Shown: piece after piece, positions 7,290 through 36,680 of the stretch | Layout: each line of letters opens with the position of its first letter | Numbering within the stretch: position 1 is the stretch's first letter | Source of the DNA: Candidatus Krumholzibacteriota bacterium | GTDB lineage: Bacteria; Krumholzibacteriota; Krumholzibacteriia; JAJRXK01 | Assembly (NCBI GenBank): GCA_963764625.1 | Contig: CAVXTH010000009.1 | Location: 768,001-832,000, forward strand | DNA: 64,000 nucleotides | Direction: 5' to 3' | The notes under the pieces: model-generated | What the model saw: the letters and a program-made list of their open reading frames with translations, nothing else | Databases searched by the model: none | What the model was told of the DNA's origin: nothing | Position numbers and translations under genes: made by a program

Positions 7290-8235
7290 AATGCTCAGAA
7301 GCAAAGACTTGCTCGATCTGGAGAGTCTTACCGCCGCCGAGATCAAACTCATCCTCGACACCGGCGAATCGTTTCTCGCGGTGATGCGAAGGCCCATTCC
7401 CAAGGTCCCCATTCTGCGCGACAAGACTATTCTGAATCTCTTCTTCGAGAACAGCACTCGAACCCGGATCTCCTTCGAGTTGGCCGAGAAGCGGCTCAGT
7501 GCTGACGTCATCAACTTCTCGGCCTCGACCTCTTCTTTGAGCAAAGGAGAGACGCTCAAGGATACGGTGGACAACATCCTCGCGATGCGCGCCGACATGG
7601 TGGTCATGCGGCATTCCGCGTCCGGAGCCGCGCGCTATCTCGCCGATCGGGTTCCGGTGGGAGTGGTGAACGCCGGCGATGGAACGCACGAGCACCCCAC
7701 CCAGGGTCTTCTGGATCTTTTGACCATGCGGCAGAAGATGGGCTCTCTGCAGGGGAAGCGGGTGGTCGTGGTGGGAGACATTCTCCACAGCCGGGTCGCG
7801 CGATCGAACCTGTGGGGTCTCACGAAGCTGGGAGCGAAAGTGACGTTGTGTGGCCCGCCGCCGATGATTCCCGCGGAAGCCGAACAGCTCGGATGCGAGG
7901 TGGATTACGACCTGCGCCACGCGGTGCGTGACGCCGACGCGATCAACGTCCTGCGAATTCAGCTCGAACGGCAATTGGTGCAGACCTTTCCCAGCAACCG
8001 GGAGTACGCGCGCAGCTATCGGGTCGACGAGAGTGTCATGGCCCTCACGAAAGATTCCTGTTTCGTCTTGCACCCGGGGCCGATGAACCGCGAGGTCGAA
8101 ATCACTTCCGCCGTGGCGGATGGTCCGCGGCAGGTGATTCTCGATCAGGTCACCAACGGGGTGGCGGTTCGGATGGCGGTCATCTATCTGCTCTCCGGTG
8201 GAGCACCGCAGAGTCTGGGAGAGAACCTGAACTGA
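7282..8235 (+). CDS. pyrB: aspartate carbamoyltransferase catalytic subunit
   Basis: [24 protein letters not shown]. Confidence 0.97.
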
Positions 8236-8259
8236 TCTCTGTTGTACGAGGATCTGGGC

Positions 8260-9594
8260 ATGAATGCAGAAATACGAAAGACCGAAAGACGAGACGTCCG
8301 GCGCGTCATCGAAAACGTTCGCGTCGTGGATCCGTCCCGTGGACTCGACGATACCGGCCACCTCGTGTGCGAAGGGGGCCTGATTCTGGAGTGCGACGAG
8401 GGTCCGGCGCCCAGTGAGCTCGTCGGCAAGGGTACGGACACCATCGACGCCCGGGGCCTCCTGCTCACTCCGGGCCTGTGGGACGTGCACGTGCATTTCC
8501 GAGAGCCGGGACAGGAGGACAAGGAGACCATCGCCACCGGAAGCAGCGCGGCCGCCGCGGGCGGATTCACCGACGTGGTGACGATGCCCAATACCGTCCC
8601 GGTGGTGGATACCTCGGGTACGGTCACGTTCATTGTGAGGAAAGCCCAGGAGGCCGGACTCTGCAGCGTGCATCCCACCGGCGCCATCAGCGCGGGACTG
8701 AAGAGCGAGAGCATGGTGGAATACGGGGACCTCGTCGACGCGGGGGCGGTGGGATTCACCGACGACGGGCGGCCGGTGGAGGACGGGAGCCTGATGCGCC
8801 ACGCCATGGAGTACAGTCGGATCCTGGGAGTGCCCATCATTACGCACGCCGAGGACCTGAGCCTGTCGGCACACGGCGTGATGCACGAGGGTTCGTGGAG
8901 CACCAGACTCGGGCTGAGGGGGATTCCCTACGCGGCGGAGGTGGCCTGCATCGCACGCGATCTCGAACTGGCTCGTCTCACCGGAGCCCACCTGCACGTG
9001 GCCCACGTCAGCAGCCGTCGAGCAGTGAATCTCCTCCGCCGGGCCAAGGAAGAAGGAATCACGGTCACTGCGGAAACCGCTCCCCACTTTCTCGACCTGA
9101 CTGACGCGGACTGCGCCGAATACGATCCGCGCTTCAAGATGAATCCGCCTCTTCGGACTGTCGACGACCAGGAGGCTCTCGTCGAGGCTCTCCTGGACGG
9201 AACCCTGGATTGCATTGCCACCGACCACGCGCCCCACACCCCAAGCGAAAAGAACCGCCCCTTCGCCGAGGCGCCCTTTGGCGTGATCGGCCTGGAGACC
9301 TCCTTCGCGGTCAGCCACGACCGACTGGTGCGGCGCGGACCCATGGACATGGCCAAACTGGTGGAGTTGATGTCCACCGCCGGTGCGCGTATCATGGGAC
9401 TGTCCGGTGGCTCGCTGGCCCCGGGCAGTCGCAGCGACTTCACCCTGATCGACCCGGAAGAGACCTGGACTCCGCAAATCAAGGATCTGCGGAGCAAAGG
9501 GCGAAACTGTCCCTGGCTGGGACACAGCCTGACCGGCCGGGTGATCGCCACCCACCGGGGAACGGATTTCACCTACCGTCGTCAGAACGGGTGA
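8260..9594 (+). CDS. pyrC: dihydroorotase
   Basis: DVHVHFREPG, MPNT, KMNPPLR, ATDHAPH. Confidence 0.95.
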   Translation: MNAEIRKTERRDVRRVIENVRVVDPSRGLDDTGHLVCEGGLILECDEGPAPSELVGKGTDTIDARGLLLTPGLWDVHVHFREPGQEDKETIATGSSAAAAGGFTDVVTMPNTVPVVDTSGTVTFIVRKAQEAGLCSVHPTGAISAGLKSESMVEYGDLVDAGAVGFTDDGRPVEDGSLMRHAMEYSRILGVPIITHAEDLSLSAHGVMHEGSWSTRLGLRGIPYAAEVACIARDLELARLTGAHLHVAHVSSRRAVNLLRRAKEEGITVTAETAPHFLDLTDADCAEYDPRFKMNPPLRTVDDQEALVEALLDGTLDCIATDHAPHTPSEKNRPFAEAPFGVIGLETSFAVSHDRLVRRGPMDMAKLVELMSTAGARIMGLSGGSLAPGSRSDFTLIDPEETWTPQIKDLRSKGRNCPWLGHSLTGRVIATHRGTDFTYRRQNG

Positions 9595-11979: not shown

Positions 11980-12928
11980 TGCGCCTGCGCCAACGCCCAC
12001 CGATCCCGCCGAAGTCGACCTGAGGGTGCGCATCGGTCCGGTCGAGTTTCGCAATCCCATCTTCACCGCCTCGGGCACCTGGGGCTACGGTCTGGAATAC
12101 CTGGATCTGGTCGATCCCGCGCTTCTGGGCGGCGTGGTCACCAAGACGATCACAGTGAAGCCCCGTCTGGGGAATCCCCAGCCCCGCGTGCGGGAGTTGC
12201 CGACCGGAATGCTCAACTCGATCGGTCTGGAGAACGTGGGGCTAGAGGTTTTCCTCAAAGAAAAGTTGCCTCGTCTTCGGGAGCGTGGAGTCGGGGTGAT
12301 CGTCTCCCTTGCCGGCCGTGACGAGACCGAGTTCGGTGCGATGATCAACGAGCTGAGCCGCCATGAGGGTTGGGTGGGAATCGAATTGAATCTCTCGTGT
12401 CCCAACGTGACCGAGGGTGGACTCGATTTCGGAATCGACCCGAAAGCGATTCGGCGGATCAGCGAACTGGCCCGCAGCGAACTACCTCAGGACAAGTGTC
12501 TCTGGGCGAAGCTCACGCCGAACGACGCTCCCATCGAGTCTCTGGCTCGCGCGGCGAGCGATGGAGGCGCCCACGCCGTCACGTGCATCAACACCGTGGT
12601 GGGAATGAAGGTCGATCTTCAGACGCTTGCCCCCGTGTTCGCACGGGGAATCGCCGGGTACAGCGGCACCGGCATCAAGCCCATTGCCCTGGCGAAGGTC
12701 TGGCAGGTTGCGAAGTCTCTTGGGATCCCCGTGGTGGGAGTGGGCGGCATCGGCAGCATCGAGGACATTCTCGAGTTCTTCGTGGTGGGCGCCACCGCGG
12801 TCCAGGTGGGCACCGCGCTCTTTCCCCGACCGGACTTGGCGCATACTCTTCTTAGCAACTTGAAGAATGCTCTGGCGGCCCGGGGCGTCCGCAGTCCGAC
12901 GCAACTGCGTTGCGAGTCGCTGAACTAG
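11972..12928 (+). CDS. pyrD: dihydroorotate dehydrogenase class 1B catalytic subunit
   Basis: ASGT, NSIGLEN, ELNLSCPN, KLTPN, INT. Confidence 0.95.
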   Translation: MADAPAPTPTDPAEVDLRVRIGPVEFRNPIFTASGTWGYGLEYLDLVDPALLGGVVTKTITVKPRLGNPQPRVRELPTGMLNSIGLENVGLEVFLKEKLPRLRERGVGVIVSLAGRDETEFGAMINELSRHEGWVGIELNLSCPNVTEGGLDFGIDPKAIRRISELARSELPQDKCLWAKLTPNDAPIESLARAASDGGAHAVTCINTVVGMKVDLQTLAPVFARGIAGYSGTGIKPIALAKVWQVAKSLGIPVVGVGGIGSIEDILEFFVVGATAVQVGTALFPRPDLAHTLLSNLKNALAARGVRSPTQLRCESLN

Positions 12929-12942
12929 CCGGGAGGTTTGCA

Positions 12943-13443
12943 GTGTCACGCTATTGGCCTTGGTTGCTGGTGATTCCGGCGGCCCTTTTCGTGCTCATTC
13001 GGGGCCTTTCTCCCGGCCGGCCCATCGAGTTGGAGAAGCAAGAACTTCTACGAAGACACCAGGAACTGTTGCAGTCGGTTCGCCAGGGCAATCTCGACGC
13101 GTGGTTGGCTCTGGAGACCGAAAACTTCGTAGAATGCACCGGGGAGGAAATCCAGCAGCTCAGCCCTTCACAGCGGCGCACCCAGCGCTCGCTCTGGCTC
13201 GGTACCGTCAAGCTCGAGCGCTATGAAGACGCTTCCGATCCCATCGTCGAGGTCGCGAACGATGGATCGCTGGCATGGTTGATCACGCGCGTGCGCGTGG
13301 TGGGAACGCGTGAGGGCGCCGACGGGGCCGAAACGAAACTCGATTCCGTCGAACCCTGGGTGGAGCTGTACCGCAAAGTTCAGGGAGAATGGAGGCTCAG
13401 CGGCCGACAGACCGGCCGCTGCCTCAATTCGCAAGCCCCCTAG
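12943..13443 (+). CDS. membrane-anchored NTF2-like (DUF4440-type) protein
   Basis: N-terminal TM; DGSLAW...YRKVQGEWR pattern; GGAGG before GTG. Confidence 0.6.
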   Translation: MSRYWPWLLVIPAALFVLIRGLSPGRPIELEKQELLRRHQELLQSVRQGNLDAWLALETENFVECTGEEIQQLSPSQRRTQRSLWLGTVKLERYEDASDPIVEVANDGSLAWLITRVRVVGTREGADGAETKLDSVEPWVELYRKVQGEWRLSGRQTGRCLNSQAP

Positions 13444-13465
13444 GCACCAAGAACGTCGGGGAAAA

Positions 13466-14446
13466 CTATTTCTTTCGCGCGCCGAGGAGATGCTCAAAGG
13501 CATCCGTCAGTCCGGCGCGGAGGGCCGCTACTTCGGCCTCGGGCCACTCCGCGGGGTCCTGGCGGACGAAGGTCGTGAGATCTTTCCGGTTGTCGAAGCG
13601 AGCCAGAGGCAGATGAAAGACTCTCCCGCGGGTTTCGATGCGCACCGTATCGGGGCGATCGGTCTGCTGAAGCAGCCACTCGATGTCGTCGCAGCCGTAG
13701 TCACCCAGCATGACCTTGATGGGTACTCCGTGATTGAGAATCGAAGCGTCCCCGTCGCGGCCGGGCTTGGCCCGCTCTTCGTTCTTGCGGCGCGATTCCG
13801 CGGGCGAAACCCAAATGTAGAGAACGCTGGCGCTCTCGAGGATTTCGTCGCTCAACTGGGCGAATCCCCAAGCGTATCCGAAAGGGGCCGGCAGGGGCAT
13901 CGATGATCCGTCGGCGCCTCCGCGCGCGAATTCGATGACGATGGTCCTGCCGTCGAGGCTCTTGGGGATTCCGGCGAGCTTGTCGTTCAGAATCGCGGCG
14001 GCCTCGTCCTCCAGCGCTTCGATCAGTTCTTCGCGTACTGCGGGCGCCAGTTCGGCCAGCGCCGCTCGTGCGCCGACCGCGGCACGGCAGCGATCGAAGC
14101 GTTCGAAGAGCCATGCCGCCGCGGACTGGACCTCGATGCGGGGCGGCGCGTGAAGATCGCGGTAGTCTTCGTTGATCAGATGCATCAGCGTTCCCCAGTC
14201 CAGAGGCTCGCTGAACGGCTCCAGTTGTGAGGAGAAGAAGATGCCGTCGTGACCTCGCGCCGTCAGTTCCTCGGAAATACGGCGCATGGCATGAACATAG
14301 GGGTAGTCGTCCAGCTGCACCGTTTCCCCCAGGTGAAAATCCCGCGTGACCTCTTCGGGGCTCAGATGTTCCAGGTAGCGGCGGACTTCGGACTTGCCCG
14401 AGGCCGGGAGCGCGGTCAAAAGGAGCGTGGGCAGGAGCTTGGTCAT
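13466..14446 (-). CDS. conserved hypothetical P-loop (kinase-like) protein
   Basis: N-terminal LLTALPASGKS Walker-A-like motif; start overlaps the upstream stop by 4 nt. Confidence 0.65.
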   Translation of the reverse strand: MTKLLPTLLLTALPASGKSEVRRYLEHLSPEEVTRDFHLGETVQLDDYPYVHAMRRISEELTARGHDGIFFSSQLEPFSEPLDWGTLMHLINEDYRDLHAPPRIEVQSAAAWLFERFDRCRAAVGARAALAELAPAVREELIEALEDEAAAILNDKLAGIPKSLDGRTIVIEFARGGADGSSMPLPAPFGYAWGFAQLSDEILESASVLYIWVSPAESRRKNEERAKPGRDGDASILNHGVPIKVMLGDYGCDDIEWLLQQTDRPDTVRIETRGRVFHLPLARFDNRKDLTTFVRQDPAEWPEAEVAALRAGLTDAFEHLLGARKK

Positions 14447-15522
14447 TCGAGGAACTCCTCTTCTTCAGAATCCTCCGATTCGTCTGCCAGGTCGTCAGAC
14501 TCGGCAAACTCGTGTTCCATCTCGCTCAGATTGGTCGCCAGCAAGAGCGCCCTGAGCTCGTCGTCGATTTCATCTTCGGGGGCTTCCGACTCGGCGAGAG
14601 CTTCGGACTCCCACGGTTCGTCCATCTGAGAAAGTCCCCGCTCCAAGAGTTCTGCCACCGCTTCGCCCACCTCGATCGATTCGGTGGACTTCCCTTCCAC
14701 GCCCTCTCGGATGAGGCGATACCCGTCGGTGTCGGCGACCATTCCCAAGAGAAGGAGACGCCTTCCCTTACACTGCGCGAGCGCGGCGACCGGGGAGTCC
14801 CATTCGCAGCCCAGGGCATCCATCAACGAGCGCTCGGCTGCGTACTCCCGCGCGGTCGGCAGGTGATGCACGCACGAGAGCCGTTCCCGCGTCAGCTTGT
14901 CCTCACGCCGGACGACACAGACCAGAATTCCCGAGCAGGGGGCCGGAATCACCAGGTCGGCGGGAAAGATCTCACTCACACGTTCCTGAAGGCCCAGCTG
15001 TTCGATGGCCGCGTTGGGCATGACCAGTGCTTCGATCTTGTGATCCAGAAGATCGGCCAGCCAGGTCGCCACGTCTCCGGACATGAGTGTCCAGTCCAGA
15101 TCGTGTCGGTACTGGAGCATCTGCACGCGGGCCCTCAGCTGCACGACGCCCACCGAAGTGCCCGCGTCCAATTCGTCGAGGGTGATTCCGCAGGGCGAAA
15201 GGAGCGCGTCGTAAGGCGAGCAACGCCGGGGGATCGCCGCAATGGCGAGATCCGGTGGAAGCTTGTCGCGCAGATCGAAGCCTCGATGGATCACGAGGTC
15301 GCAGTCGCCATCCCGCAGGATCTGGTGCAGAACCTGAATACTGCGCCGGTTCTCCGCGATGTGGTCCACATGTACCGCGATGGGACGATCCTGCGAGGGA
15401 CGCACGAGTTCGAGATGCACGGGATACGACGGCACGAATTCCCGCAGCTGTTTCAAGAACAGCTCGGCTTGGGCTCTGGCGAGACCATCCTCTCTCGTTC
15501 CAATGGTGAGTGGTTGAACCAT
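14443..15522 (-). CDS. HemC (hydroxymethylbilane synthase)-like protein with degenerate active site and acidic tail
   Basis: IGTR..LA.AQ, DLVIH...D, PYDALLS, PAPCSG, AERSL follow HemC order; GTSSLRR, RGN and GGC motifs are altered. Confidence 0.75.
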   Translation of the reverse strand: MVQPLTIGTREDGLARAQAELFLKQLREFVPSYPVHLELVRPSQDRPIAVHVDHIAENRRSIQVLHQILRDGDCDLVIHRGFDLRDKLPPDLAIAAIPRRCSPYDALLSPCGITLDELDAGTSVGVVQLRARVQMLQYRHDLDWTLMSGDVATWLADLLDHKIEALVMPNAAIEQLGLQERVSEIFPADLVIPAPCSGILVCVVRREDKLTRERLSCVHHLPTAREYAAERSLMDALGCEWDSPVAALAQCKGRRLLLLGMVADTDGYRLIREGVEGKSTESIEVGEAVAELLERGLSQMDEPWESEALAESEAPEDEIDDELRALLLATNLSEMEHEFAESDDLADESEDSEEEEFLE

Positions 15523-22447: not shown

Positions 22448-23551
22448 GTGAAGCGCAGCTCTCCTCATCTCTTGAACTGGCTCGGTCGTCTCATCGATCC
22501 CACTGTCCTGAGCTCACCGCTCTTGGCTCCGGACGCGGCTACCCTGGAGTTGGCGAACGCCAACGGAATGCTCTCATTGCTCCATCGAGTGCTGGTCGAC
22601 GACGGAGTCTTCGGCGAGCTTCCTCCTCTGCTGAAGAAGAGGATGCACGACGCGCGCGACCAAGAGATCACGCTGGACCTGAAGATCCACGAGGCGACCC
22701 GCGGCCTGGCCGAGGAGTTTGCCACGGCCGCGATTCCCGTGATCGCGCTAAACGGAACCGCATTGCGTAGCGTGCTCTATGAACCTCGGGGGTGGACCCA
22801 CGCCCCCGACGGTATCGATCTCCTCTTGGGCCGCGATTCGATGGAGGAGGCGGAGAAGCTCCTCGATGCCTGCGGATTCGTCCGTCTGGGGCAGAATCCG
22901 CCGGAGTTCTACGTGCATCACCATCGCGCCGAACCGCGAACCTTGCCCGGTTGCCCCGCGCTGCGGCTCGAACTCCACTGGGACCTGGCGCGTTCGCCTC
23001 ACTCCTTTCATCTCGACCTGGACGGAATGTGGCAGCGCGCGATTCCTCTGTCCCCCCACGAGGGAAGCCTGCTGCGGCTGGTCGATTCCGATCTGCTGGT
23101 TCAGCTGTGCTTGCGCATCGATCACGACGAGAACTACGCGGGCTGCATGCGCGCGTTGGTGGAAGCGTTGGCCTTCGCACGCCACCGGCGCGTCGATGGT
23201 CACACCCTCTCCCTGCGGGCGCGAGAAGCGAGAGCGCAGATGGAGGTGAGCCGGGTGTTGGGTTTGGCGAGTTTGTTCCTGGGACTGGGCGCACCGGCCG
23301 GCCTGCCGCTCAACCGGGGGCCCAAAGGTCTACGGGGTAGGAGTTGGCGCGCGCTCGTGCAGCGCACTCTCTGGCGTCAACATGAGGGCGGGATGCTTCC
23401 ACTTTGGTACTTGAATTACGCGACCGAGGTTCTTCTGCGTGCGAAGTCGTCTCCGCATGCCCTCGCGCTGCTTCTGAAGCCGGTGCTCTCCAACCCGCGG
23501 CTCGGTGGCCGCGGCTTCGTGCATCCGCGCCGCGAGGAGCTCGAGGATTAA
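22448..23551 (+). CDS. nucleotidyltransferase family protein (NTP_transf_5-like), degenerate motifs
   Basis: IPVIALNG..L...LY...DGIDLLL...LELHW pattern. Confidence 0.7.
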   Translation: MKRSSPHLLNWLGRLIDPTVLSSPLLAPDAATLELANANGMLSLLHRVLVDDGVFGELPPLLKKRMHDARDQEITLDLKIHEATRGLAEEFATAAIPVIALNGTALRSVLYEPRGWTHAPDGIDLLLGRDSMEEAEKLLDACGFVRLGQNPPEFYVHHHRAEPRTLPGCPALRLELHWDLARSPHSFHLDLDGMWQRAIPLSPHEGSLLRLVDSDLLVQLCLRIDHDENYAGCMRALVEALAFARHRRVDGHTLSLRAREARAQMEVSRVLGLASLFLGLGAPAGLPLNRGPKGLRGRSWRALVQRTLWRQHEGGMLPLWYLNYATEVLLRAKSSPHALALLLKPVLSNPRLGGRGFVHPRREELED

Positions 23552-23841
23552 CTCGCCTCCGGCGGGGACACCACGAGCAGATTCTCACTTTCCAACGCGT
23601 TTAGAAAAGCCTCGAAGTCCTGCCGGGCGGTTTCCTCGACGACGTCGAATGACTCGACGATTTTCGCCAAAATCTGCGCGTTCGAAGCTTGACCGTCACA
23701 GAGATCCCAGATGAAGAGCGCAACCGGATTCAGACTGAAATAAAAGCCCGTCTCCAGGTTCACGAGGATTCCCTCTTCCTCGACGGCTTGCCAGCGAACT
23801 TGCTCGTTTCGGCTCGGGCGAAAGTCGGGGTCGAAAACCAC
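23548..23841 (-). CDS. stand-alone PqqD family protein / RiPP recognition element (RRE)
   Basis: ILVNLETGFYFSLNPVALFIWDLCDG...FDV..ETARQDFEAFLNAL; GGAGG before GTG 23841 (alternative ATG 23859). Confidence 0.88.
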   Translation of the reverse strand: MVFDPDFRPSRNEQVRWQAVEEEGILVNLETGFYFSLNPVALFIWDLCDGQASNAQILAKIVESFDVVEETARQDFEAFLNALESENLLVVSPPEAS

Positions 23842-23877
23842 GGTTCCTCCAAAGGGCATAGGACCGGTCGGAAAGGG

Positions 23878-23969: not shown

Positions 23970-24094
23970 TAGTCCACCCCTGAAGGCGCGGGGCCGGGGG
24001 GGGATTCGGGGCTTTGCGGTGGGCAAACCGTGGACTTGTGCTACTTTTCCCTCTCCGCGGAGAGCCAACCCGGAGAAAACCGAGGAGAGGACAC

Positions 24095-25495
24095 GTGCCA
24101 GAGAGAGAGTACGAAGTTCTGGTGGTGGGAGCGGGCCCCGGCGGCTACGTCGCCGCGATTCGCAGCGCGCAGCTGGGAATGAAGACCGCGATCGTCGAAA
24201 GGGATCAGCGTCTGGGCGGGACCTGCCTGCTGCGAGGGTGCATCCCCACTAAGGCCATGCTCCACGCGGCCGATCTGGTCACCGAGATTCGGCGAGCCAA
24301 GAGCGCCGGGATCCAGGTGGGTGGGGTCGAGATCGATTTCAGTGGCGTGATGAAGTCGAAGGAGGCCGCGGTCACCAAGAACTCCAAGGGCGTCGATTTC
24401 CTCATGAAGAAGAACAAGATCGACGTACTCCACGGGCACGCGACGCTCCTGGCCGCAGGCAAACTCGCGCTGAAGGGTGAGAACTCAAGTCAGGAGATCT
24501 CCGCCAGCAAGGGGATCATTCTGGCCATGGGCAGTCGCCCGCGCGCGATTGGGGCCTTCGAGGTCGACGGCAAGAAGATCGTGGACAGCGATCAGATTCT
24601 TCAGTTGAAGGAGATCCCTGAGCGCCTGGCGGTCCTGGGCGCCGGTGCGGTGGGCGTCGAGTTCGCCTCGATCTTCTCCCGCTTCGGCAGCAAGCTCACC
24701 CTCATCGAAATGCTGCCGCGCATCGTGCCCCTGGAAGACGAGGAGATCAGCGCCGAGCTCACGAAATCGTTCAAGAAGCAGGGCATGGACGTGCGAGCGG
24801 GAACCACTCTTCAGTCAGCCAAGGTCAAGGGCAACACGGTCGAGCTCGTCACTTCCAAGGACGAGAAGAAGGACACGATCGAGGCGGACATGCTGCTCGT
24901 CGCGGTGGGGCGCGCCCCAAACAGCGAGAATTGTGGCTTGCAAGAAGCGGGGGTCAAACTGGAGAAGGGCTACGTGGTGGTGGACGAGTACATGCGTACC
25001 GCTCTTCCCAAGGTGTATGCGATCGGTGACCTCGTACCCACGCCGCAGTTCGCGCACACGGCGAGCGCGGAGGGAATCGTCGCCGCGGAACACATCGCGC
25101 AGGTTTCGACCCGCCCGCTCGACTACGAGAAAACCCCGGGATGCACCTACTGCTATCCCGAGGTGGCGAGCATCGGGCTCAGCGAGGCCGAGGCGAAATC
25201 CCGCGGCTACGAGGTGGCCATCGGCAAGTTTCCCTGGGCCGCCAGCGGCAAGGCGCGAATCCTGGGAGAGAGCGGCGGATTCGTGAAGATCGTGCGCGAG
25301 ACGCGCTACGACGAAATCCTCGGAATCCACATCATCGGCCCCCACGCGACCGATCTAATCGGTGAGGCATGCGCTCTCTTGGGTCTGGAAGCGACCAACG
25401 AGGAGTTGACGCGCATCGTCCATCCGCACCCGACCCTCACGGAAGCCATGATGGAAGCCGGCCACGATGCGGCCGGCCACGCGATAGGGATGTGA
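24095..25495 (+). CDS. lpdA: dihydrolipoyl dehydrogenase (E3)
   Basis: GAGPGG, GGTCLLRGCIPTK, HPHPTLTE. Confidence 0.96.
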   Translation: MPEREYEVLVVGAGPGGYVAAIRSAQLGMKTAIVERDQRLGGTCLLRGCIPTKAMLHAADLVTEIRRAKSAGIQVGGVEIDFSGVMKSKEAAVTKNSKGVDFLMKKNKIDVLHGHATLLAAGKLALKGENSSQEISASKGIILAMGSRPRAIGAFEVDGKKIVDSDQILQLKEIPERLAVLGAGAVGVEFASIFSRFGSKLTLIEMLPRIVPLEDEEISAELTKSFKKQGMDVRAGTTLQSAKVKGNTVELVTSKDEKKDTIEADMLLVAVGRAPNSENCGLQEAGVKLEKGYVVVDEYMRTALPKVYAIGDLVPTPQFAHTASAEGIVAAEHIAQVSTRPLDYEKTPGCTYCYPEVASIGLSEAEAKSRGYEVAIGKFPWAASGKARILGESGGFVKIVRETRYDEILGIHIIGPHATDLIGEACALLGLEATNEELTRIVHPHPTLTEAMMEAGHDAAGHAIGM

Positions 25496-25497
25496 GC

Positions 25498-26547
25498 ATG
25501 GGTTTCAACGTCGCCGATCCCGTTCCCCCGCTTCTGCGCCACACCACGGCGCGCTTGGGCAAGAAACAACTGCTCGAGTTGTACCGTTACATGATCCTCA
25601 CTCGCATGACCGAGGATCGCCTGAGCAAGCTCTATCGCCAGGGCAAGGTGGTCGGCGGACTCTATAGCTCTCTGGGACAGGAGGCGGTGGCGGTCGGAAC
25701 CGCGTACGCCCTGGAAAAGGGAGACCGGATGGGTGCGCTCATCCGCGACCTGGGATCGCTCATGGTCAAGGGCATCCGACCGCGCGAGATCTTCACCCAG
25801 TATCTCGCCCGCGGCAGTAGTCCCTCGTTCGGCCGCGATGGCAACACGCACTTCGGACCGATCGAACGCGATCTCATCGCTCCCATCTCCATGCTGGGAG
25901 CGATGATCCCGGTCCTCGCCGGAACCGCTTTGGTGGCCAAGCTGCGCAAGACGAAGCGGGTCGCGATGACTTACATCGGCGACGGAGGGGCTTCCACCGG
26001 GGACTTTCACGAGGGGCTGAACTTGGCTGCGGTCTGGAAACTTCCTCTCATTCTCATCTGCGAAAACAACGGCTACGCGTACAGCACGCCCACCGCGGCG
26101 CAGACCGGCAACCCGCGCTTTGCCGATCGGGCCAAGGCCTACGGCATCAAGGGAGAGCGGGTCGACGGAAACGACGTCATCGCGGTCTACCACTCCACCG
26201 CGCGCGCGGTTCGCCGCTGCCGCAAGGGAGAAGGTCCCATTTTGCTCGAAATGCTCACCTTCCGCCGTCGCGGACATGCGGAGCACGACGACGCAGGCTA
26301 CGTTCCCAAGGATCTTCTCAAGTACTGGGAGGCGCGCGACCCCATCGACCGGCTCCGCAGCTACCTCCTCTTGGAAGGCTTGGTCACGCAGCCCCAACTC
26401 GACGCCATGCGCGACGCCATCGCCAATGAACTCGAGGAAGATGCCGAGTTCGCTCTGAACTCGCCCCTGCCCGATCCCTCGATGGCCTTCGGCGGAGTGT
26501 ACGCGGAAGATCACGATCCGCGCGTCTCCAAGGCAGAGGAGGCGTGA
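25498..26547 (+). CDS. 2-oxoacid (pyruvate/branched-chain) dehydrogenase E1 alpha
   Basis: GQEA, GDG..(TPP motif)..NN, DGND, RRRGH. Confidence 0.92.
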   Translation: MGFNVADPVPPLLRHTTARLGKKQLLELYRYMILTRMTEDRLSKLYRQGKVVGGLYSSLGQEAVAVGTAYALEKGDRMGALIRDLGSLMVKGIRPREIFTQYLARGSSPSFGRDGNTHFGPIERDLIAPISMLGAMIPVLAGTALVAKLRKTKRVAMTYIGDGGASTGDFHEGLNLAAVWKLPLILICENNGYAYSTPTAAQTGNPRFADRAKAYGIKGERVDGNDVIAVYHSTARAVRRCRKGEGPILLEMLTFRRRGHAEHDDAGYVPKDLLKYWEARDPIDRLRSYLLLEGLVTQPQLDAMRDAIANELEEDAEFALNSPLPDPSMAFGGVYAEDHDPRVSKAEEA

Positions 26548-27527
26548 TGGCTGAACGGACTTACATCGAAGCGATTCACGACGGGTTGTGGGAGGAGATG
26601 GAGCGCGACGAATCAGTTCTGCTCATGGGAGAAGACGTCGGACACTATGGCGGCGCGTTTCGGGCCACCTCAGGACTGCTCGAACATTTCGGACCACAGC
26701 GCGTTCTGGACACCCCGATCTCCGAATCGGCCATCGTGGGATGCGCCATCGGCGCCGCGCTGGAGGGCATGCGGCCGGTGGTCGAGATGCAGTTCATCGA
26801 CTTCATCGCCTGCGCATTCAACATGCTCGTCAACTGGGCCGCGAAAGCGCGTTATCGACTGGGCTACGCCCTACCCATGGTCGTTCGCGGACCTTCGGGA
26901 GGCGGTGTGCACGGGGGACCGTTCCACAGTCAAAACGTGGAGAGCTTCTTCACCTCCACTCCTGGCTTGAAGATCGTGCAACCGGCCACCGCGCGCGACG
27001 CGAAGGGACTCTTGAAGGCGGCGATTCGCGACGACGATCCCGTTCTTTTTCTCGAGCACAAGTTTCTCTACCGAAGGATCAAAGAGGACCTAGAGGACGA
27101 CGAGGAGATCCTCACTCCCCTGGGGAAAGCCGCCACTCTGCGGGAAGGAGACGATCTGGCGATCATCAGCTACGGAGCGATGGTCCACACCGCATTGCAG
27201 GCGGCGCAGCAGCTTTTTGAGGAAGATGGCGTCGAGGCCGAGGTTCTCGATTTGCGGAGTCTAGTTCCCTTGGATGAAGAGGCGGTCTTGGCGGCGGCGC
27301 GGCGCAGTGGGCGCGTGCTTCTGCTGCACGAAGCGACTCTGAACGGCGGATTCGGCGGTGAACTCGCGGCACGCATCGCCGAGAAGGCGTTCGAGTGGTT
27401 GGACGCGCCCCTGATGCGGCTGGCGTCGCCCGACAGCGCCGTACCGTACAGTCCACCCTTGGAAGAGGCGTTCTTGCCTCAGGTCGCGCAGGTGGTGGCG
27501 AAGGCTCGGACTCTGGTGCGATACTAA
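26544..27527 (+). CDS. 2-oxoacid dehydrogenase E1 beta
   Basis: GEDVG, DTPISE, EMQF, FHSQ, DLRSL.PLD. Confidence 0.93.
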   Translation: MMAERTYIEAIHDGLWEEMERDESVLLMGEDVGHYGGAFRATSGLLEHFGPQRVLDTPISESAIVGCAIGAALEGMRPVVEMQFIDFIACAFNMLVNWAAKARYRLGYALPMVVRGPSGGGVHGGPFHSQNVESFFTSTPGLKIVQPATARDAKGLLKAAIRDDDPVLFLEHKFLYRRIKEDLEDDEEILTPLGKAATLREGDDLAIISYGAMVHTALQAAQQLFEEDGVEAEVLDLRSLVPLDEEAVLAAARRSGRVLLLHEATLNGGFGGELAARIAEKAFEWLDAPLMRLASPDSAVPYSPPLEEAFLPQVAQVVAKARTLVRY

Positions 27528-27591
27528 GAGTTTGGGCGGCTCTTTCCAGTTCTCAACGAGTGCCAGTCGCGGATGCTGGCCGGGAGGAACC

Positions 27592-29007
27592 ATGGCAAGC
27601 GAAGTGATCATGCCTCAGATGGGCGAGAGTATCGCCGAGGGCACCATCACCAAGTGGCTCAAGAAGGTGGGGGATTCGGTCGAACACGACGAGCCCCTGT
27701 TCGAGATCTCGACCGACAAAGTCGACGCGGAGATTCCGGCTCCCCAGGCGGGAACCCTTCTGGAGATCCTGGTGGGGGAAGGGGAAACGGTGGAGATCAA
27801 CACCGTGGTCGCGCGCATTGGCACAGAAGACGGCGCCGGCGCCAAGGGTGCCACTGTGGAGACCCCGAAGCCTTCGGACGGAGCCCCCGCGCCGCAGGCG
27901 ACTGCTTCGCCCTCCGCCGAGCCCCGCCCAAAGAGCCAGGCTCCGGCGAAGTCCGAGCTCACCCCCAATGCGTCGCAGCCCACCCCGCAGGGTCCTGCTT
28001 CTAAAGCGGAGCGCATCCGCACCAAGAGCTCGCCGGTGGTGCGCAAGATCGCGGCCGAGCACGGGATCGACATTAGCTCGATTCAAGGGAGCGGAATCCA
28101 GGGACGGGTGACCAAGAGGGACATCCTGGCCTATATCGAGAAAGGTGGCGCCCCGGCCGCGGCACCGGCCCAAACTCTCTCGCGTGCCCCCGCGCTGGCT
28201 TTCGCCGCGCAGGGCGGCGCGCAGGAGCGCGTCTCAGCTGAGAGCGGTTCGATGCTGGGAGTGAGCGCTTGGCCGGCCAAGAAGGTAGAGGCCTATCTCT
28301 CCACTCCAGGAGCGAACGATACGGTCGAGCCCCTATCGCAGATGCGCAAGAAGATCGCCGAGCACATGGTCATCTCCAAAGCGCTGTCGCCGCACGTCCA
28401 CAGCCTGTACGAAGTCGATATGAGTCGAGTCGACGAGTTGCGCAAGGCGCACCGCGACGAGTTCATCAAGGCTTCCGGAGGCGCCAATCTCAGCTACACC
28501 GTGTTCATGGTGAAGGCCGTCGTCGACGCGCTCCGTGCCACTCCGGTGGTGAACGCGTCGGTGCTGGGCGACGAAGTGATCTACCACAACGACATCAACG
28601 TGGGGTTAGCGGTAGCGCTCGAACAGGGTCTCATCGTTCCGGTGATTCGCCGCGCCCAGGACCTCTCCATGACCGGGATCGCGCGCGCCATCGACGACCT
28701 GGCCACCAGGGCACGAAACCGTCAGCTCGAGCTCGGTGAAATCCAGGGCTCCACCTTCTCCATCACCAACCCGGGCTCCTTCGGCGGCCTCATCGGCTTC
28801 CCGGTTATCTCCCAGCCCAACGTGGCGATCCTGGGGATGGGAACGGTGGAGAAGCGGGTTTGCGTGATCAACGATGCCATCGCCATCCGGCCGAAGATGT
28901 ACATGACGCTGGGCTATGATCACCGCCTGGTGGACGGGGCCACGGCCGAGGTATTCCTGAGCTCGGTGAAGAAGACTCTGGAGAACTTCGACGAAACCGC
29001 GCTCTAG
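27592..29007 (+). CDS. dihydrolipoamide acyltransferase (E2)
   Basis: Lipoyl domain STDKV, E3-binding GSG..GRVTK, catalytic DHRLVDG. Confidence 0.95.
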   Translation: MASEVIMPQMGESIAEGTITKWLKKVGDSVEHDEPLFEISTDKVDAEIPAPQAGTLLEILVGEGETVEINTVVARIGTEDGAGAKGATVETPKPSDGAPAPQATASPSAEPRPKSQAPAKSELTPNASQPTPQGPASKAERIRTKSSPVVRKIAAEHGIDISSIQGSGIQGRVTKRDILAYIEKGGAPAAAPAQTLSRAPALAFAAQGGAQERVSAESGSMLGVSAWPAKKVEAYLSTPGANDTVEPLSQMRKKIAEHMVISKALSPHVHSLYEVDMSRVDELRKAHRDEFIKASGGANLSYTVFMVKAVVDALRATPVVNASVLGDEVIYHNDINVGLAVALEQGLIVPVIRRAQDLSMTGIARAIDDLATRARNRQLELGEIQGSTFSITNPGSFGGLIGFPVISQPNVAILGMGTVEKRVCVINDAIAIRPKMYMTLGYDHRLVDGATAEVFLSSVKKTLENFDETAL

Positions 29008-29020
29008 CCGGAGGGCGCCG

Positions 29021-29683
29021 ATGCCGATGCCCGATTGTCACTACCGCTCGCTCGGCCGCGTCGGGTACGAGGAGGCGGCGCGGTTGCAGGAAGAGCTGGT
29101 GAACCGCCGCCGCCGCGGGGAGATCCCCGATCAGCTCCTGCTCCTGGAGCACCCCCACGTCCTCACCAAGGGCAGCCGCGCGCGTGAGGAACACATCCTG
29201 GTGGACGCAGCGGCGCGCGATTCTCTGGGGCTCACGGTGCACGAATCGGGTCGGGGAGGGGACGTGACCTATCACGGTCCCGGGCAGCTCGTGGGCTATC
29301 CCATCCTCCAGCTCCAGAAAGAGGAGCAGGACGCCCATCGCTATTTGAGGCAGCTAGAGGAAGTGCTCATCCGCGTGCTCGAGCGTCTCGGCATTCCCGC
29401 GCAGCGGAATCCCCGCTACACCGGAGTCTGGGTGGGCGATGCCAAGGTGGCGGCCATCGGGGTGCGACTCAGCCACTGGGTCACAAGCCATGGATTCGCG
29501 TTGAACGTGAACTGTGACTTGAGTTACTTCGATACGATCGTGCCCTGTGGGATCCAGGGCAAGCGGGTCTCGTCGCTCAGCGACCTGGGCCTCGCATCGT
29601 TGAACCTGGAGCAGGTCACTCCCGACCTCGTCTCGCAGTTCGGCACGGTATTTCAGCGCCAGATGGTCGCGAAAGAGAATTGA
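29021..29683 (+). CDS. lipB: lipoyl(octanoyl) transferase
   Basis: LLEHPHV, RGGDVTYHGPGQ, KVAAIG, HGFALN, PCG. Confidence 0.95.
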   Translation: MPMPDCHYRSLGRVGYEEAARLQEELVNRRRRGEIPDQLLLLEHPHVLTKGSRAREEHILVDAAARDSLGLTVHESGRGGDVTYHGPGQLVGYPILQLQKEEQDAHRYLRQLEEVLIRVLERLGIPAQRNPRYTGVWVGDAKVAAIGVRLSHWVTSHGFALNVNCDLSYFDTIVPCGIQGKRVSSLSDLGLASLNLEQVTPDLVSQFGTVFQRQMVAKEN

Positions 29684-29685
29684 TC

Positions 29686-30600
29686 ATGCCCAGAGAGAGT
29701 CTGCAGGAGCGCATCGCGAAACGCCCGCCCTGGCTGCGAGTCCGTTTGCGCGATTCCAAAGCGGTGCAAGACGTGAACTCCATGATGCGCTCCCTGCGCC
29801 TGACCACCGTCTGTGAAGAGGCGCAGTGCCCCAACCTCTTCGAGTGCTGGTCGGCGCGCACCGCGACCTTCATGCTGATGGGCGAGGTCTGCACGCGGCA
29901 TTGTGGATTCTGCGCGGTGAAGAAGGGGGTGACCCTTGCCCTCGATCCCCAAGAGCCCGGGCACGTGGCCGAGGCGGTGCAGCGGCTGAAACTCAACCAC
30001 GCCGTGGTCACCAGCGTCAATCGCGACGACCTAGAGGACGGCGGAGCGGCCCATTTCGCGGCCACGATCGAGGCAATTCGCCGGGTGAACCCTGAGTGTA
30101 AGGTCGAGGTCCTCATCCCCGATTTCCAGGGCCGAGAGAGCGCGCTTCAGACCGTCCTTGCCGCCAAGCCCGAAGTCCTCAACCACAACGTGGAGACGGT
30201 GCCCCGGCTCTACTCACGCGTCCGCCACGGTTCGGATTTCCAGCGCAGCCTCACCCTCCTGCGCCGCGCCGCGCGGGCCAAACCCGAGTCCATTCTGCGG
30301 ACCAAGAGTGGCCTGATGCTGGGTCTGGGAGAGACTCTCGAGGAAGTCTACGAGCTCTGTGCGCGTCTGCGCGAAGCAGAGGTCGATGTCTTGACCATCG
30401 GGCAATACCTCCAGCCCTCCGCCCGGCATCTGCCGGTGGAACGCTGGGTTTCCCCGCAAGAATTCGAGGAGATCGGCGCGCGCACACAGACTCTCGGGTT
30501 CGCGCACGTGGAGAGCGGCGTGTTCGTCCGCTCGTCCTACCATGCGGAACGGCACGTTCCTGCAACCAGTGAGAATTTGGGGCCAGGCGAGCTAGCGTGA
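29686..30600 (+). CDS. lipA: lipoyl synthase
   Basis: CEEAQCPN..EC, CTRHCGFC, RSSY. Confidence 0.96.
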   Translation: MPRESLQERIAKRPPWLRVRLRDSKAVQDVNSMMRSLRLTTVCEEAQCPNLFECWSARTATFMLMGEVCTRHCGFCAVKKGVTLALDPQEPGHVAEAVQRLKLNHAVVTSVNRDDLEDGGAAHFAATIEAIRRVNPECKVEVLIPDFQGRESALQTVLAAKPEVLNHNVETVPRLYSRVRHGSDFQRSLTLLRRAARAKPESILRTKSGLMLGLGETLEEVYELCARLREAEVDVLTIGQYLQPSARHLPVERWVSPQEFEEIGARTQTLGFAHVESGVFVRSSYHAERHVPATSENLGPGELA

Positions 30601-30732
30601 ACCACTCGCCGTTCGTTTCGGATCCGGGCTCAGGTGTGTGAACAGCGTGATCAACTTGAGATTGCTCTGCCGCTTGACTACCGGGGGAGCGTAAGGGCGA
30701 CGCTTCTGGCTGGCGTCGTACATCGTCTTCAT
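30592..30732 (-). CDS. small peptide with lasso/RRE-type leader (putative RiPP precursor)
   Basis: 46 aa MKTMYDASQKRRPYAPPVVKRQSNLKLITLFTHLSPDPKRTASGSR; YxxPxV..L..IT leader pattern; GGAGA RBS. Confidence 0.65.
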   Translation of the reverse strand: MKTMYDASQKRRPYAPPVVKRQSNLKLITLFTHLSPDPKRTASGSR

Positions 30733-30992
30733 GGCGCGATCTCTCCGCAACTTGAAACCAATCGATGATGCCGGGCCGGCGTAAGGCTCGGCAGCGTGCT
30801 GATAGCGGCCAATATAGGTCAAATTGCTCAGGCGCGCACCATCCTGGATTTGACTTTTTTGCCCTTGAGCCAAGTTTTTTTCGGCCTGATCTCGCCCGCG
30901 CTGTCTTCTTGCGAGGACGATGAGCCCTGGACTACACTGCCGGCGCCGCAGCGAAGGGACAATCGTCACGCGCGCAGAGGAGGGAGCCCGCC

Positions 30993-32225
30993 ATGAGCAT
31001 GGAGAAGATCGACGCCGCGCTGGCCCGAGAACTCGAGGGTATGGAGAAGGAGGGACGGGCCAAGGCGCCTGAGAGGGTGATCGTGGGCTATGTTCCCGCC
31101 AAGGGCAAAAGGGGACCCCGCTACCGGCTGCAGGGGAGCGAGCAGGAGTTCATCCGCATGAACTCCAACTCCTACCTCTCGCTCTCCGATCATCCCAAGC
31201 TGGTGGAGGCGGCCGACCGGGCCACCCACGAGTTCGGGGTGGGTCCGGGCGCGGTACGCTTCATCGACGGCACCTTCAGTCATCATCGCAAACTGGAGAT
31301 CGCCATCGCCGAGTACCTGGGGAAACCCGCCGCGAAGATCTTCAACTCCGCTTACACGAGCAATCTGGGACTGGCCCTGACGCTCTCCTCGGCGAGCAGC
31401 TACTGGATCGGGGATGCCCTCAACCACAACTGCATCATCCGCGGCATGCGCATCGCCGGGGTTCCCTCCCAGCAGAGGGCCATCTACGCCCACAACGACC
31501 TGGCCGAGCTGAAAAGCCGCCTCGAGGCGGTTCCTCAGGGAATGGAGCGAGTGTTCGTCATTTTCGACGGCATTTTCAGCATGCGGGGGGACTATGCCCC
31601 CCTGCAGAGGATCCAGAAGCTCGTGGCCGAGTACGACGAGCGCTTCTCTGAGGGAATCATCACGATCGTGGACGATTCCCACGGCATCGGAGCCTACGGG
31701 GACAGAGGCCGCGGCACCGAGGACTTCACCTCGGCGCGGGCTGAAGTGGTGGTGGGGACTTTCGGAAAGGCGTTCGGGGTGAACGGCGGGTTCATCGCCG
31801 GAAGCGAGCAGCTCATCGAGGCGGTGCGGCAGAAGGCCGACACCTACATCTACACCAATCCTCTGGGAGTGGCCGACTGCGCCGCCGCGCTGGCCGCGGT
31901 CGAGCTGGCCGCCTCGGCGGAGGGTCAGAAGCGCCTGAAGCACCTCCATGCGCGGGTGGCCCAATTCCGGCGCGGGGTGGCCCTCTTGGGCATCGAGTCC
32001 ATTCCGGGGCCTCATCCGGTAGTGCCGCTGCTGGTGCGCGATACCGAAAAGACGCGTCGCTGGGTCTCGGCGCTCTTTGCCAAGGGCGTCCTAGTGGTGG
32101 GTTTGACCTTCCCGGTGGTGCCGCGAGGGGACGAGACGATTCGCGTACAGATCAACGCGGCGCACACCGAGGCGGACATCGATGAAGTTCTGAGCTGCCT
32201 GAAGGAGACCATGCCCAAGGACTGA
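30993..32225 (+). CDS. alpha-oxoamine synthase family (glycine C-acetyltransferase Kbl-like)
   Basis: NSNSYL, VRFI.GT, DGIFSM.GD, VDDSHG, GTFGKA, RVQI. Confidence 0.88.
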   Translation: MSMEKIDAALARELEGMEKEGRAKAPERVIVGYVPAKGKRGPRYRLQGSEQEFIRMNSNSYLSLSDHPKLVEAADRATHEFGVGPGAVRFIDGTFSHHRKLEIAIAEYLGKPAAKIFNSAYTSNLGLALTLSSASSYWIGDALNHNCIIRGMRIAGVPSQQRAIYAHNDLAELKSRLEAVPQGMERVFVIFDGIFSMRGDYAPLQRIQKLVAEYDERFSEGIITIVDDSHGIGAYGDRGRGTEDFTSARAEVVVGTFGKAFGVNGGFIAGSEQLIEAVRQKADTYIYTNPLGVADCAAALAAVELAASAEGQKRLKHLHARVAQFRRGVALLGIESIPGPHPVVPLLVRDTEKTRRWVSALFAKGVLVVGLTFPVVPRGDETIRVQINAAHTEADIDEVLSCLKETMPKD

Positions 32226-32377
32226 GGACGAATCGCAACTGGCGAGCAAGTCATAAGGCGTCATCTTCTCAGGAGTGGAACAAGGAAAGTGGCGCCCCGG
32301 AATCGACGGCAGGTCGAGCCGGTCGAAAAAGAGAATTCAGCGAAGGAGCACTCCTTCGCACAGAGAGAGGATGAAGT

Positions 32378-33418
32378 ATGGCACTGGTACCCATGCGTGT
32401 ACTGCTCGATCACGCGGCCGAAAATGGTTACGGAGTCGGCGCGTTCAACGTGAACAACATGGAACAGATTCAGGCCATCATGGAGGCGGCGCGGGAGACG
32501 AATTCGCCGGTGATCGTGCAGGCAAGCCGCGGTGCGCGCGCCTACTCGGACGATGCCTATCTGCGCCATCTCATGCTCGCTGCGGTCGAACTCAATCCCA
32601 AATTGCCCGTCGCCATGCACCAGGACCACGGCAACTCGCCGCAAACCTGTTTCTCCGCCATCGAAATGGGATTCACCTCGGTGATGATGGACGGCTCTCT
32701 CAACGCGGACGGCAAGACGCCTTCCACCTACGAGTACAACGTCGAGGTCACCCAGAAAGTGGTGCAGGCGGCCCACGCGAAGGGCGTCACGGTAGAGGCC
32801 GAGTTGGGAACCCTCGGGGGCATCGAAGACGGCCACGGCGCGGGCCTCACCGCGGAGCAGGCCCTGACCCATCTGACCGATCCGGCGCAGGCCGAGGAGT
32901 TCGTGGAGCAGACGGGTTGCGATGCGCTGGCCGTCGCCATCGGCACCAGCCACGGGGCCTACAAGTTCACGAAGAAGCCCACCGGGGAAGTGCTCAAAAT
33001 GGACATCATCGCGGAGATTCACCGCCGCCTGCCCAACACACACATGGTCATGCACGGCAGCTCGTCGGTGCCCAAGGAACTGGTCGACATCGTCAACCAG
33101 TACGGCGGACAGATCCGCGAGACCTACGGTGTGCCGGTTGAGGAGATCCAGGAGGGAATCCGTCACGGCGTGCGCAAGATCAACGTCGACACCGACAGTC
33201 GCTTGGCGATCACCGGCGCCATCCGCAGAGTCTTTGCCACAGACGGCAGCAAGTTCGATCCGCGCGACTACCTGAAGCCGGCGCGAGACGCCATGAAAGA
33301 GGTCGTCAAAGCGCGCATGATCGCCTTTGGACAGGCGGGGAACGCGGACAAGGTTCCCGCGCTCACGCTTCAGGACATGAAGCGGCGCTACCACGACATG
33401 GGAAGCAAAGTCTCCTGA
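32378..33418 (+). CDS. fba: class II fructose-bisphosphate aldolase
   Basis: [33 protein letters not shown]. Confidence 0.96.
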
Positions 33419-35005: not shown

Positions 35006-36512
<1,507 letters not shown>

Positions 36513-36680
36513 ACGGCTGGGCTCCTGGGAGAGGAGAAGGTGAGAGGAGGCGTGATGGGCCTCCGCGCAAGAACTCCCGGCCCAAGGGCGAGGCGCGGGC
36601 ACGGAGTCGTGCGAGTGTATTCCAGGCACCTGCGGGGTGCAAGGGAGGGCTGATTCTCCCCATCCGTGCGATTCTCCCGT

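Follow-up and report, generated by a model that had tools for sequence, protein, structure and literature searches.

A conserved small gene next to lipA in a Krumholzibacteriota genome probably encodes a RiPP-like precursor of a cyclase-less, lasso-type peptide pathway

Cyclase-less peptide pathways derived from lasso peptide biosynthesis were first characterised in 2026, and the passages of that paper used here describe them as restricted to Bacillota (Popov et al., Nat Commun 2026, PMC13381572). According to the same passages, the LPP system comprises a precursor (LppA), a kinase (LppK), a recognition element (RRE; LppB) of the kind known from peptides that are ribosomally synthesized and then post-translationally modified (RiPPs), a SipW-like peptidase (LppS), an exporter (LppD) and a nucleoside triphosphate (NTP) transferase (LppN), without any cyclase. 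The LPP precursors carry the motif YxxPxVLxHQxIxFETxxS; leader cleavage takes place behind the Thr, and Ser3 receives up to four phosphates. The kinase reportedly did not act on a Ser3-to-Thr variant, nor did LppN show activity in a heterologous host (PMC13381572). The underlying leader motif, YxxPx(L/V/I) with a penultimate Thr, is defined in passages of two papers (PMC13381572, PMC10368454). In paeninodin and pseudomycoidin biosynthesis, as far as covered by the relevant part of PMC8498205, the same types of kinase and nucleotidyltransferase serve as tailoring enzymes, the leader is bound by B1, and the kinase works on the linear precursor. In the corresponding part of the RRE-Finder paper, a neighbouring peptidase and cyclase were missing for roughly half of the lasso-type RREs that are discrete, and these RREs were treated as possible false positives (PMC7470986). 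Here we analysed a 64,000-nt stretch of a Candidatus Krumholzibacteriota genome (the window), and found that a 46-aa open reading frame (ORF) at 30592–30732 on its minus strand probably encodes a genuine RiPP-like precursor of a cyclase-less, lasso-type pathway, which in this genome would be reduced to the peptide, an RRE and a nucleotidyltransferase.

Throughout, G000 denotes the genome that holds the window, G001, G002 and so on the related genomes sampled, g1 the genus of the window, and f1, f2, f4 and f7 families. The minus-strand translation of 30592–30732 (stop codon included in the coordinates) is MKTMYDASQKRRPYAPPVVKRQSNLKLITLFTHLSPDPKRTASGSR followed by a stop, and both peptide strings quoted in the preliminary description of this locus lie within it. 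The leader-like part ends at about residue 29–30 (…KLITL), and the tail is FTHLSPDPKRTASGSR. The gene converges on lipA (29680–30600, plus strand) with an overlap of 9 nt (30592–30600), and a Shine-Dalgarno-like GGAGA (30742–30746, minus strand) is located 9 nt upstream of its ATG. On the other side, a divergent intergenic region (30733–30992) separates it from a kbl-like gene; this region contains TATATT (the reverse complement of 30811–30816) and A-tracts (plus-strand T-runs at ∼30851–30885), and 182 of its 270 aligned columns were identical in G002. The ORF, the ribosome-binding site, TATATT, the A-tracts and the lipA overlap had all been listed in the preliminary description and were confirmed in the sequence. 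The frame is open further upstream to a GTG at 30969 (125 aa); this longer form was rejected in favour of the ATG at 30732, because 12 of 12 aligned relatives start at the matching M(K/E) and the ATGs of relatives are also preceded by purine-rich stretches. Neither the 46-aa nor the 125-aa form had a meaningful match in Pfam or NCBIfam. A hairpin spans the stop codon of the peptide gene. Scans of 30300–31300 for the sigma-70 consensus and for intrinsic terminators found none; promoters of other types may be in use in this organism.

When 41 related genomes were searched in the manner of tblastn, clear matches came from the same genus and family, with several copies to a genome; 14 of the 41 were counted in a loose tally at E ≤ 10, the convincing ones being G000–G005. 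The translations followed the pattern M(K/E)…(K/R)RRxYxxPx(V/L/I)x(K/R)(Q/H)xxLKxITL(F/Y)T, then a variable tail. Profile searching across 5.8 billion proteins yielded 37 members of 33–78 aa, all unnamed or ‘hypothetical’ and two of them labelled Candidatus Krumholzibacteria, and an exhaustive search of cluster representatives gave 28 members. The phylum was covered by an even sample of 151 genomes, 117 of them high-quality; the peptide profile (A2, E ≤ 0.001) matched 13 of the 151, with one to three copies each (13 of 117 among the high-quality ones). Within the searches made, the family appeared to be restricted to Krumholzibacteria-like genomes. All profile-matched members shared RRPYxxPx(V/L)..Q..LKxITL(F/L/Y)(T/S) followed by a variable tail. 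In the alignment of 52 members Y14 and P17 were invariant, and R12, L25, T29, L30 and T32 were at least 90% conserved. The YxxP..IT pattern, for which a homologue check across related genomes had been proposed, was thereby found to be retained in relatives. The spacing from Val to Thr in the leader motif is 10 residues, in keeping with the lasso-like leader (YxxPx[V/L] with a Thr ten residues on) described earlier.

The tail behaved differently from the leader. The preliminary description had noted an Asp at position 7 of a proposed 16-aa core; the copy in the window has it, but this residue is not conserved in the family, and tails such as FTNFGPPS contain no acidic residue. Many tails were only 7–8 residues long and without Asp or Glu (FTNFGPPS, LSFTPPN), and those of G000 and G002 had diverged from the common FTNFGPP type. 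At the third position after the conserved Thr, members of families f4 and f7 have Ser, and those of family f1, including the copy in the window, have Thr. The peptide is built like a RiPP precursor, with a conserved leader bearing a lasso/LPP docking motif and a hypervariable tail.

Selection on the gene was examined by the ratio of non-synonymous to synonymous substitution rates (dN/dS). Against the G002 orthologue, a dN/dS of 0.21 was obtained for the whole peptide (12.5 synonymous and 11.5 non-synonymous differences), with 0.08 for residues 9–32 and 0.32 for the rest. In the same pair of genomes the value was 0.05 for the PqqD gene described below and 0.13 for lipA. The other two sense frames over the ORF contain stops. 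These results demonstrated that 30592–30732 is a real, conserved small gene rather than an ORF arising by chance.

A second, more diverged copy was observed in G000 on contig C6 (32193–32279, minus strand). It belongs to a paralogue type, MKDQQ…KRRIYKAPEVKKQQ.LKEL…HFNRQG, that lacks the ITLFT segment and was also seen at loci L016 (8586–8705) and L018 (8208–8327), the G000 copy corresponding to L017 8185–8304. Its place is constant, between an unannotated gene of 597–738 aa and either a major facilitator superfamily transporter gene (G002, G003) or a Band_7 gene (G000). It is retained in G003, where PqqD and PF14907 gave no match.

In relatives, peptide genes were found together with a recurring cassette. 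Across the phylum sample PF14907 matched 62 of 151 genomes and PF05402 (PqqD) 99, both being present in 12 of the 13 peptide-bearing genomes, all but G003; in 10 of these 13, PqqD and a peptide copy shared a contig and were no more than 7 kb apart. The arrangement was tightest in families f4 and f7 (G041, G053, G054, G071, G145), where the peptide gene immediately precedes PqqD and both are on one strand, with a gap from peptide stop to PqqD start of 71 nt in G053, 87 nt in G071 and 62 nt in G145. The most compact cassette was that of G041, with peptide, PqqD and kinase-like genes on one strand and B2, PF14907, ABC and ABC-2 genes on the other. G008 and G009 contain a cluster of PqqD, B2, kinase-like, peptide and PF14907 genes, in which peptide and PqqD are within ∼2 kb. 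In G005, PqqD and kinase-like genes stand ∼5 kb ahead of two tandem peptide genes. G004, of the same genus as the window, has a window-like layout with the full set of PF14907 / ABC-2, ABC, HprK-like, B2 and PqqD genes ahead of lpd. The parts are on different contigs in G001 and G043. The distance between PqqD and peptide was 5–7 kb in G000, G004 and G005.

Besides PqqD, B2 and the kinase, the cassette domains were PF14907, ABC_tran and ABC2_membrane. The B2 genes of relatives passed the NCBIfam model ‘lasso peptide biosynthesis B2’ (NF033537) with 43–62 bits at a cut-off of 33, and were present in G001, G004, G005, G008, G009, G041, G053 and G071; B2 was not found in G000, G002 (88% complete) or G003. 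The kinase-like proteins of ∼330 aa were distant HprK-related kinases (TIGR04352, 32–58 bits; cut-off 200). No PF00733 domain, that of the lasso cyclase, was in or beside the cassettes of the five genomes checked, the nearest partial match being 23 kb off in G041, and no cyclase was seen in the other scanned cassette loci of relatives. The position of the gene directly ahead of lasso-type B1 (PqqD) and B2 in relatives agreed with the lasso-like leader. Likewise, the HprK-like kinase and PF14907 without a cyclase fit the earlier proposal that the product is not a lasso and belongs to another RiPP class, with possible phospho-, nucleotidyl- or glyco-modification.

In the window itself, a stand-alone PqqD-family protein of 103 aa (an RRE, lasso B1-like) is encoded at 23548–23859 on the minus strand (PF05402, 69 bits) and was the sole clear PqqD match in G000. 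All NCBIfam lasso and Scm PqqD models scored below their cut-offs on it (lasso models 36–40 bits versus 70–80), and it is not a curated member of these families. It was 90% identical to the G002 copy. A nucleotidyltransferase-fold protein of 367 aa (PF14907, NTP_transf_5; 84 bits) is encoded at 22448–23551 on the plus strand according to the ORF list and a codon-usage model, an earlier start at 22346 being possible; its gene converges on PqqD with an overlap of 4 nt and is the only PF14907 copy in G000. We take LppN to be a PF14907 protein as well, the Pfam family not being named in the LPP passages. Between PqqD and the peptide gene lies an operon of lpd, E1-alpha, E1-beta, E2, lipB and lipA (24014–30600, plus strand), which is context outside the system and separates the two in genus g1; the same lpd–lipA layout was found in G002 and G004.

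The PF14907 protein was unusually fast-evolving. Within one genus, 22448–23551 was only 47–51% identical to L044 712–1809 (minus strand) and L037 7819–8928 (plus strand), the G000 protein sharing 47% identity with that of G002 and 51% with that of G004. At 47% by tblastn, the G000 and G002 proteins were too diverged for a useful dS. By comparison, lipA was 80% identical between G000 and G002.

In both G000 and G002, PF14907 is next to PqqD with nothing between, and four genes stand at that place in G004. The simplest reading would be that the exporter, kinase and peptidase genes were lost in one deletion before the lineages of G000 and G002 parted. After the deletion, the peptide and the RRE of G000 and G002 remain under purifying selection.

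The cassettes of relatives resemble the LPP system, as far as the latter is described in the passages used, in having a discrete RRE, a kinase resembling HprK, an NTP transferase and an exporter with no macrolactam cyclase, and in having one to three precursors per cluster or genome with a conserved N-terminal YxxPxV…T-x-x-S and highly variable C-termini. The Krumholzibacteria consensus agrees with the LPP motif at seven positions (Y, P, V, H/Q, I/L, T, S/T). Nevertheless, several differences from these descriptions were observed. The peptidase of relatives is of the B2 type (transglutaminase-like), whereas LPP is defined by a SipW-like type I signal peptidase (SpI); the exporter is a two-gene ABC-2 type instead of MsbA-like; 7–27 residues follow the conserved Thr in the members listed, compared with an LPP core of 45 residues; family f1 has Thr instead of Ser at +3; and the phylum is a different one. 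G000 differs further in being without kinase, peptidase and exporter. The precursor motif, and an NTP transferase and discrete RRE without cyclase, are thus shared between G000 and LPP, and an LppK-like kinase and SpI are not among the features found in G000. No S24/S26 peptidase domain was detected in window positions 11209–40955 or in the scanned loci of relatives, a genome-wide SpI search not having been run.

Compared with paeninodin and pseudomycoidin, the clustering of B1 (PqqD), B2, an HPr-kinase homologue and a nucleotidyltransferase is the same in the part of PMC8498205 concerned. The Krumholzibacteria cassettes differ from these systems in being without a cyclase, hence without a lasso, and in having no acidic residue for ring closure that is conserved. 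Their conserved residue with a hydroxyl group is near the core start and not at the C-terminal Ser, although many members still end in Ser (…FGPPS). The PqqD of the window is of the same kind as the orphan RREs of the RRE-Finder passages, but here a cognate peptide family was identified. A literature search found no description of RiPPs in Krumholzibacteria, and a search on the HprK-related kinase TIGR04352 and PF14907 gave nothing related among the matches listed.

Public sequencing runs were inspected for transcription. Part of 30300–31100 was contained in 18 runs, three of which are metatranscriptomes. Each of these three had one short RNA contig over the ORF, at 30518–30779 (1 difference), 30586–30781 (no difference) and 30581–30765 (no difference). 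The contigs are strandless, and the stretch under them (30581–30781) holds the ORF, ∼35–50 nt on its 5′ side and the stop-codon hairpin. Their right ends fell within 16 nt (30765–30781) with no loose end listed there, and the left ends of two of them, at 30586 and 30581, were just past the hairpin. By contrast, a contig of a DNA run continued across 29915–31175. Over 29000–32500 most of lipA and kbl had no RNA contig over it, such gaps not being evidence of absence. These observations gave a weak hint of a discrete transcript over the peptide ORF, and the gene is probably transcribed.

Based on the above comparison, a pathway can be proposed. The leader motif Y14-x-x-P17-x-V19 would dock on the stand-alone PqqD/RRE, by analogy with lasso B1 and LppB, and the RRE would present the conserved I-T-L-F-T segment to the partner enzymes. 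Where relatives have the full cassette, the HprK-like kinase would phosphorylate the conserved Ser/Thr three residues past the conserved Thr, the lasso B2-type cysteine peptidase would cut off the leader, the PF14907 nucleotidyltransferase would attach a further group, and the ABC-2 exporter would secrete a short linear peptide. No macrolactam ring would be made, because no cyclase is present. The cleavage site is putative: a B2-type cut after T-L would leave a 16-aa core, and an LPP-type cut after Thr a core of 17 aa whose third residue is Thr. The pathway could not run in full in G000, because B2, the HprK-like kinase and the exporter were not found there. The peptide may not be cut at all in G000, because neither a leader peptidase nor the kinase was found, and only an RRE-guided action of the nucleotidyltransferase would remain possible. 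A more specific version, which we hold only tentatively and consider rather unlikely, is a minimal three-gene system in which RRE-guided PF14907 nucleotidylylates or phospho-glycosylates Thr32 (or a Ser of the tail) of the uncleaved, intracellular 46-aa peptide; if true, this would be the first assignable activity for LppN/PsmN-type enzymes.

The docking step was modelled by complex prediction with PqqD (9-row alignment) and the peptide (52-row alignment). Scores of 0.58, 0.59 and 0.58 were obtained, versus 0.01 for the best control, which was graded as ‘weak support’. Contact agreement between the runs was at least 83%, and the predicted local distance difference test (pLDDT) value of the partner was at least 53. 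Among solved complexes 116 of 157 attained the mark used for the score, as did 2 of 215 mismatches; only 18 of the 157, along with both mismatches, did so at scores of 0.60 or lower. The pass may reflect memory or likeness, because RRE–leader complexes have already been solved.

Several observations weigh against the proposed pathway. The complex score of PqqD and peptide is at the ‘weak support’ level just mentioned, and the model is drawn from genomic and sequence data, from which the modification and the peptide product are predicted. In G000 the lasso B2 peptidase was not found anywhere in the genome (PF13471, best E 0.93). The HprK-like kinase was not found either; the only candidate was canonical HprK (C9:982062–982562), which was also the only gene recovered, with E of 0.003, in a protein search of G000 with the G004 kinase. 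No exporter was seen beside the cassette in the Pfam scan of window positions 11209–40955. The peptide gene is separated from PqqD by 6.7 kb and a housekeeping operon. The genus of the window has Thr at the position where Thr was rejected by the LPP kinase in the passage cited (PMC13381572). The 47–51% identity of the PF14907 protein within the genus, against 90% for PqqD, means that its constraint may be relaxed. G003 (93% complete) has one paralogue but neither a PqqD nor a PF14907 match. The RNA contigs are strandless, RNA libraries can hold DNA, and the three studies may be one campaign.

Some of these observations would also be explained if the peptide of G000 were no longer a modified RiPP but a small protein with another role, for example a partner or regulator of PqqD or a protein tied to lipA/lipB and kbl. 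The kinase, peptidase and exporter not found in G000, the B2 not found in G002, the G003 paralogue without PqqD or PF14907, and the diverged tail of G000 and G002 would all suit such a role, as would the place beside lipA/lipB, which is kept in four genomes of the same genus (G000, G001, G002 and G004). However, the strongest constraint sits on the RRE-docking and cleavage-type motif (dN/dS 0.08) and PqqD is also constrained (0.05), no known family or fold points to another role, and genomes outside genus g1 do not have the lipoate synteny. We therefore consider this explanation unlikely, although it is the rival that survives best.

It may also be asked whether the peptide, PqqD and the nucleotidyltransferase are a decaying remnant on the way out, four cassette genes having been lost already. 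The deletion of ABC-2, ABC, HprK-like and B2 genes relative to G004, and the fast evolution and weaker hidden Markov model score of the nucleotidyltransferase (84 bits, versus 138 in G004), are what would be expected of decay. Nevertheless, the deletion is common to G000 and G002 despite a large synonymous divergence (dS 0.55–1.27), the peptide, PqqD and PF14907 frames are intact, dN/dS is low for both the peptide (0.21) and PqqD (0.05), and RNA contigs cover the ORF. A remnant is therefore quite improbable.

A true lasso peptide, with cyclase and protease encoded elsewhere in the genome, would account for the lasso-type leader and for the Asp at position 7 of the previously proposed core, and three Asn-synthase homologues (PF00733) are indeed present in G000, all on contig C6. 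However, these homologues scored 482–483 bits with TIGR01536 (cut-off 267) and only 217–256 bits with the lasso-cyclase model, far under its cut-off of 525, and are ordinary glutamine-hydrolysing Asn synthases or exopolysaccharide (EPS) amidotransferases. Of the features of a lasso system, G000 has the leader motif and the B1/RRE; B2 and a cyclase were not found, and a core with Asp/Glu at 7–9 followed by a threading tail is lacking in many family members, although the copy in the window has Asp7. Furthermore, there was no cyclase near the cassettes in five relatives, and tails of 7–8 residues without Asp/Glu cannot make a 7–9-membered macrolactam with a threaded tail. Lasso peptide identity was rejected on the grounds that G000 has no B2 or lasso cyclase and that the cassettes of relatives are cyclase-less, and we regard it as very improbable.

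Scanning 30400–31200 against Rfam at E ≤ 10 gave two chance long non-coding RNA matches and nothing else, and the RNA fold of 30500–30800 (minus strand) was no better than that of shuffled sequence (z 0.24), showing no sign of a structured RNA. A non-coding origin, that is, an ORF that happens to lie on a non-coding RNA or on the lipA 3′ end or terminator region, could be argued from the shortness of the ORF, its overlap with lipA and the strandless RNA contigs, but can be dismissed as hardly credible given these results, the stops in the other frames, and the paralogues at unrelated loci that keep the protein motif through synonymous change.

If the precursor reading holds, the precursor family of a pathway related to LPP has now been identified in an uncultured phylum of the FCB group, and such pathways can use a lasso B2 peptidase in place of the SipW-like one. 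The suggestion of a lasso-type leader on a non-lasso product is borne out by independent genomic evidence, the form in G000 being reduced and of uncertain activity. Genus g1 provides a natural ‘deletion series’, from the full cassette of G004 to the RRE and nucleotidyltransferase of G000 and G002, which could help to assign the function of PF14907. An ‘orphan’ lasso-type RRE can have as its substrate the product of a 35–60-aa ORF located kilobases from the enzymes.

Peptide genes also adjoin large secreted proteins of BNR/Sortilin or PKD/FlgD-Ig type in G001, G005, G053, G071 and G145. The BNR/Sortilin-Vps10-type beta-propeller genes (families f1 and f4) are at L031 10903–13194, L032 16248–18497, L033 8253–10481, L014 9070–11376 and L012 6–2132; in the five relatives they either adjoin peptide genes or follow the kinase-like gene, and the encoded proteins often end in FlgD-Ig / Por_Secre_tail. 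In G053 (L031) there is a 4-nt overlap between the BNR gene and the kinase-like gene. In L014, L032 and L033 the peptide genes are preceded by genes for PKD-domain proteins of ∼1,000–1,070 aa. The secreted beta-propeller proteins are co-operonic with peptide genes in relatives, and the mature peptide may have them as partners or receptors. Two further genes, at 12651–13277 and 13311–14477, lie between two peptide genes of G071 (L032); one encodes a YdjY-domain protein, the other a protein with a weak C-terminal squalene-hopene-cyclase match. The latter match suggests a terpene-cyclase or prenyltransferase-like fold, and the two are possible extra tailoring genes.

Elsewhere in the window, a POT/PTR2 peptide transporter gene (35006–36629, minus strand) is split into overlapping frames at 35006–35911 (profile 184–384) and 35646–36629 (profile 2–115). 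In relatives it is a single ORF of 531 aa, and the split in the window is a frameshift, due either to pseudogene formation or to an assembly error.

Family f2 carries the same cassette. A precursor beside it was sought in four loci by a scan for the YxxP motif, and by six-frame reading next to PqqD in three of them and in a 60-nt stretch of the fourth; none was found, and the A2 profile matched 0 of 61 f2 genomes. Just 3′ of the PqqD/HprK-like/B2 cassette, a gene of ∼770 aa was observed at f2 loci L040 (∼8150–8500), L041 (∼7930–8390) and L043 (∼7840–8240), all on the minus strand. It has an apparent signal peptide start, and in all three loci an in-frame TGA lies within the conserved SADG*PYCPSAVAGF, which looks like selenocysteine in a thioredoxin-like UxxC motif.

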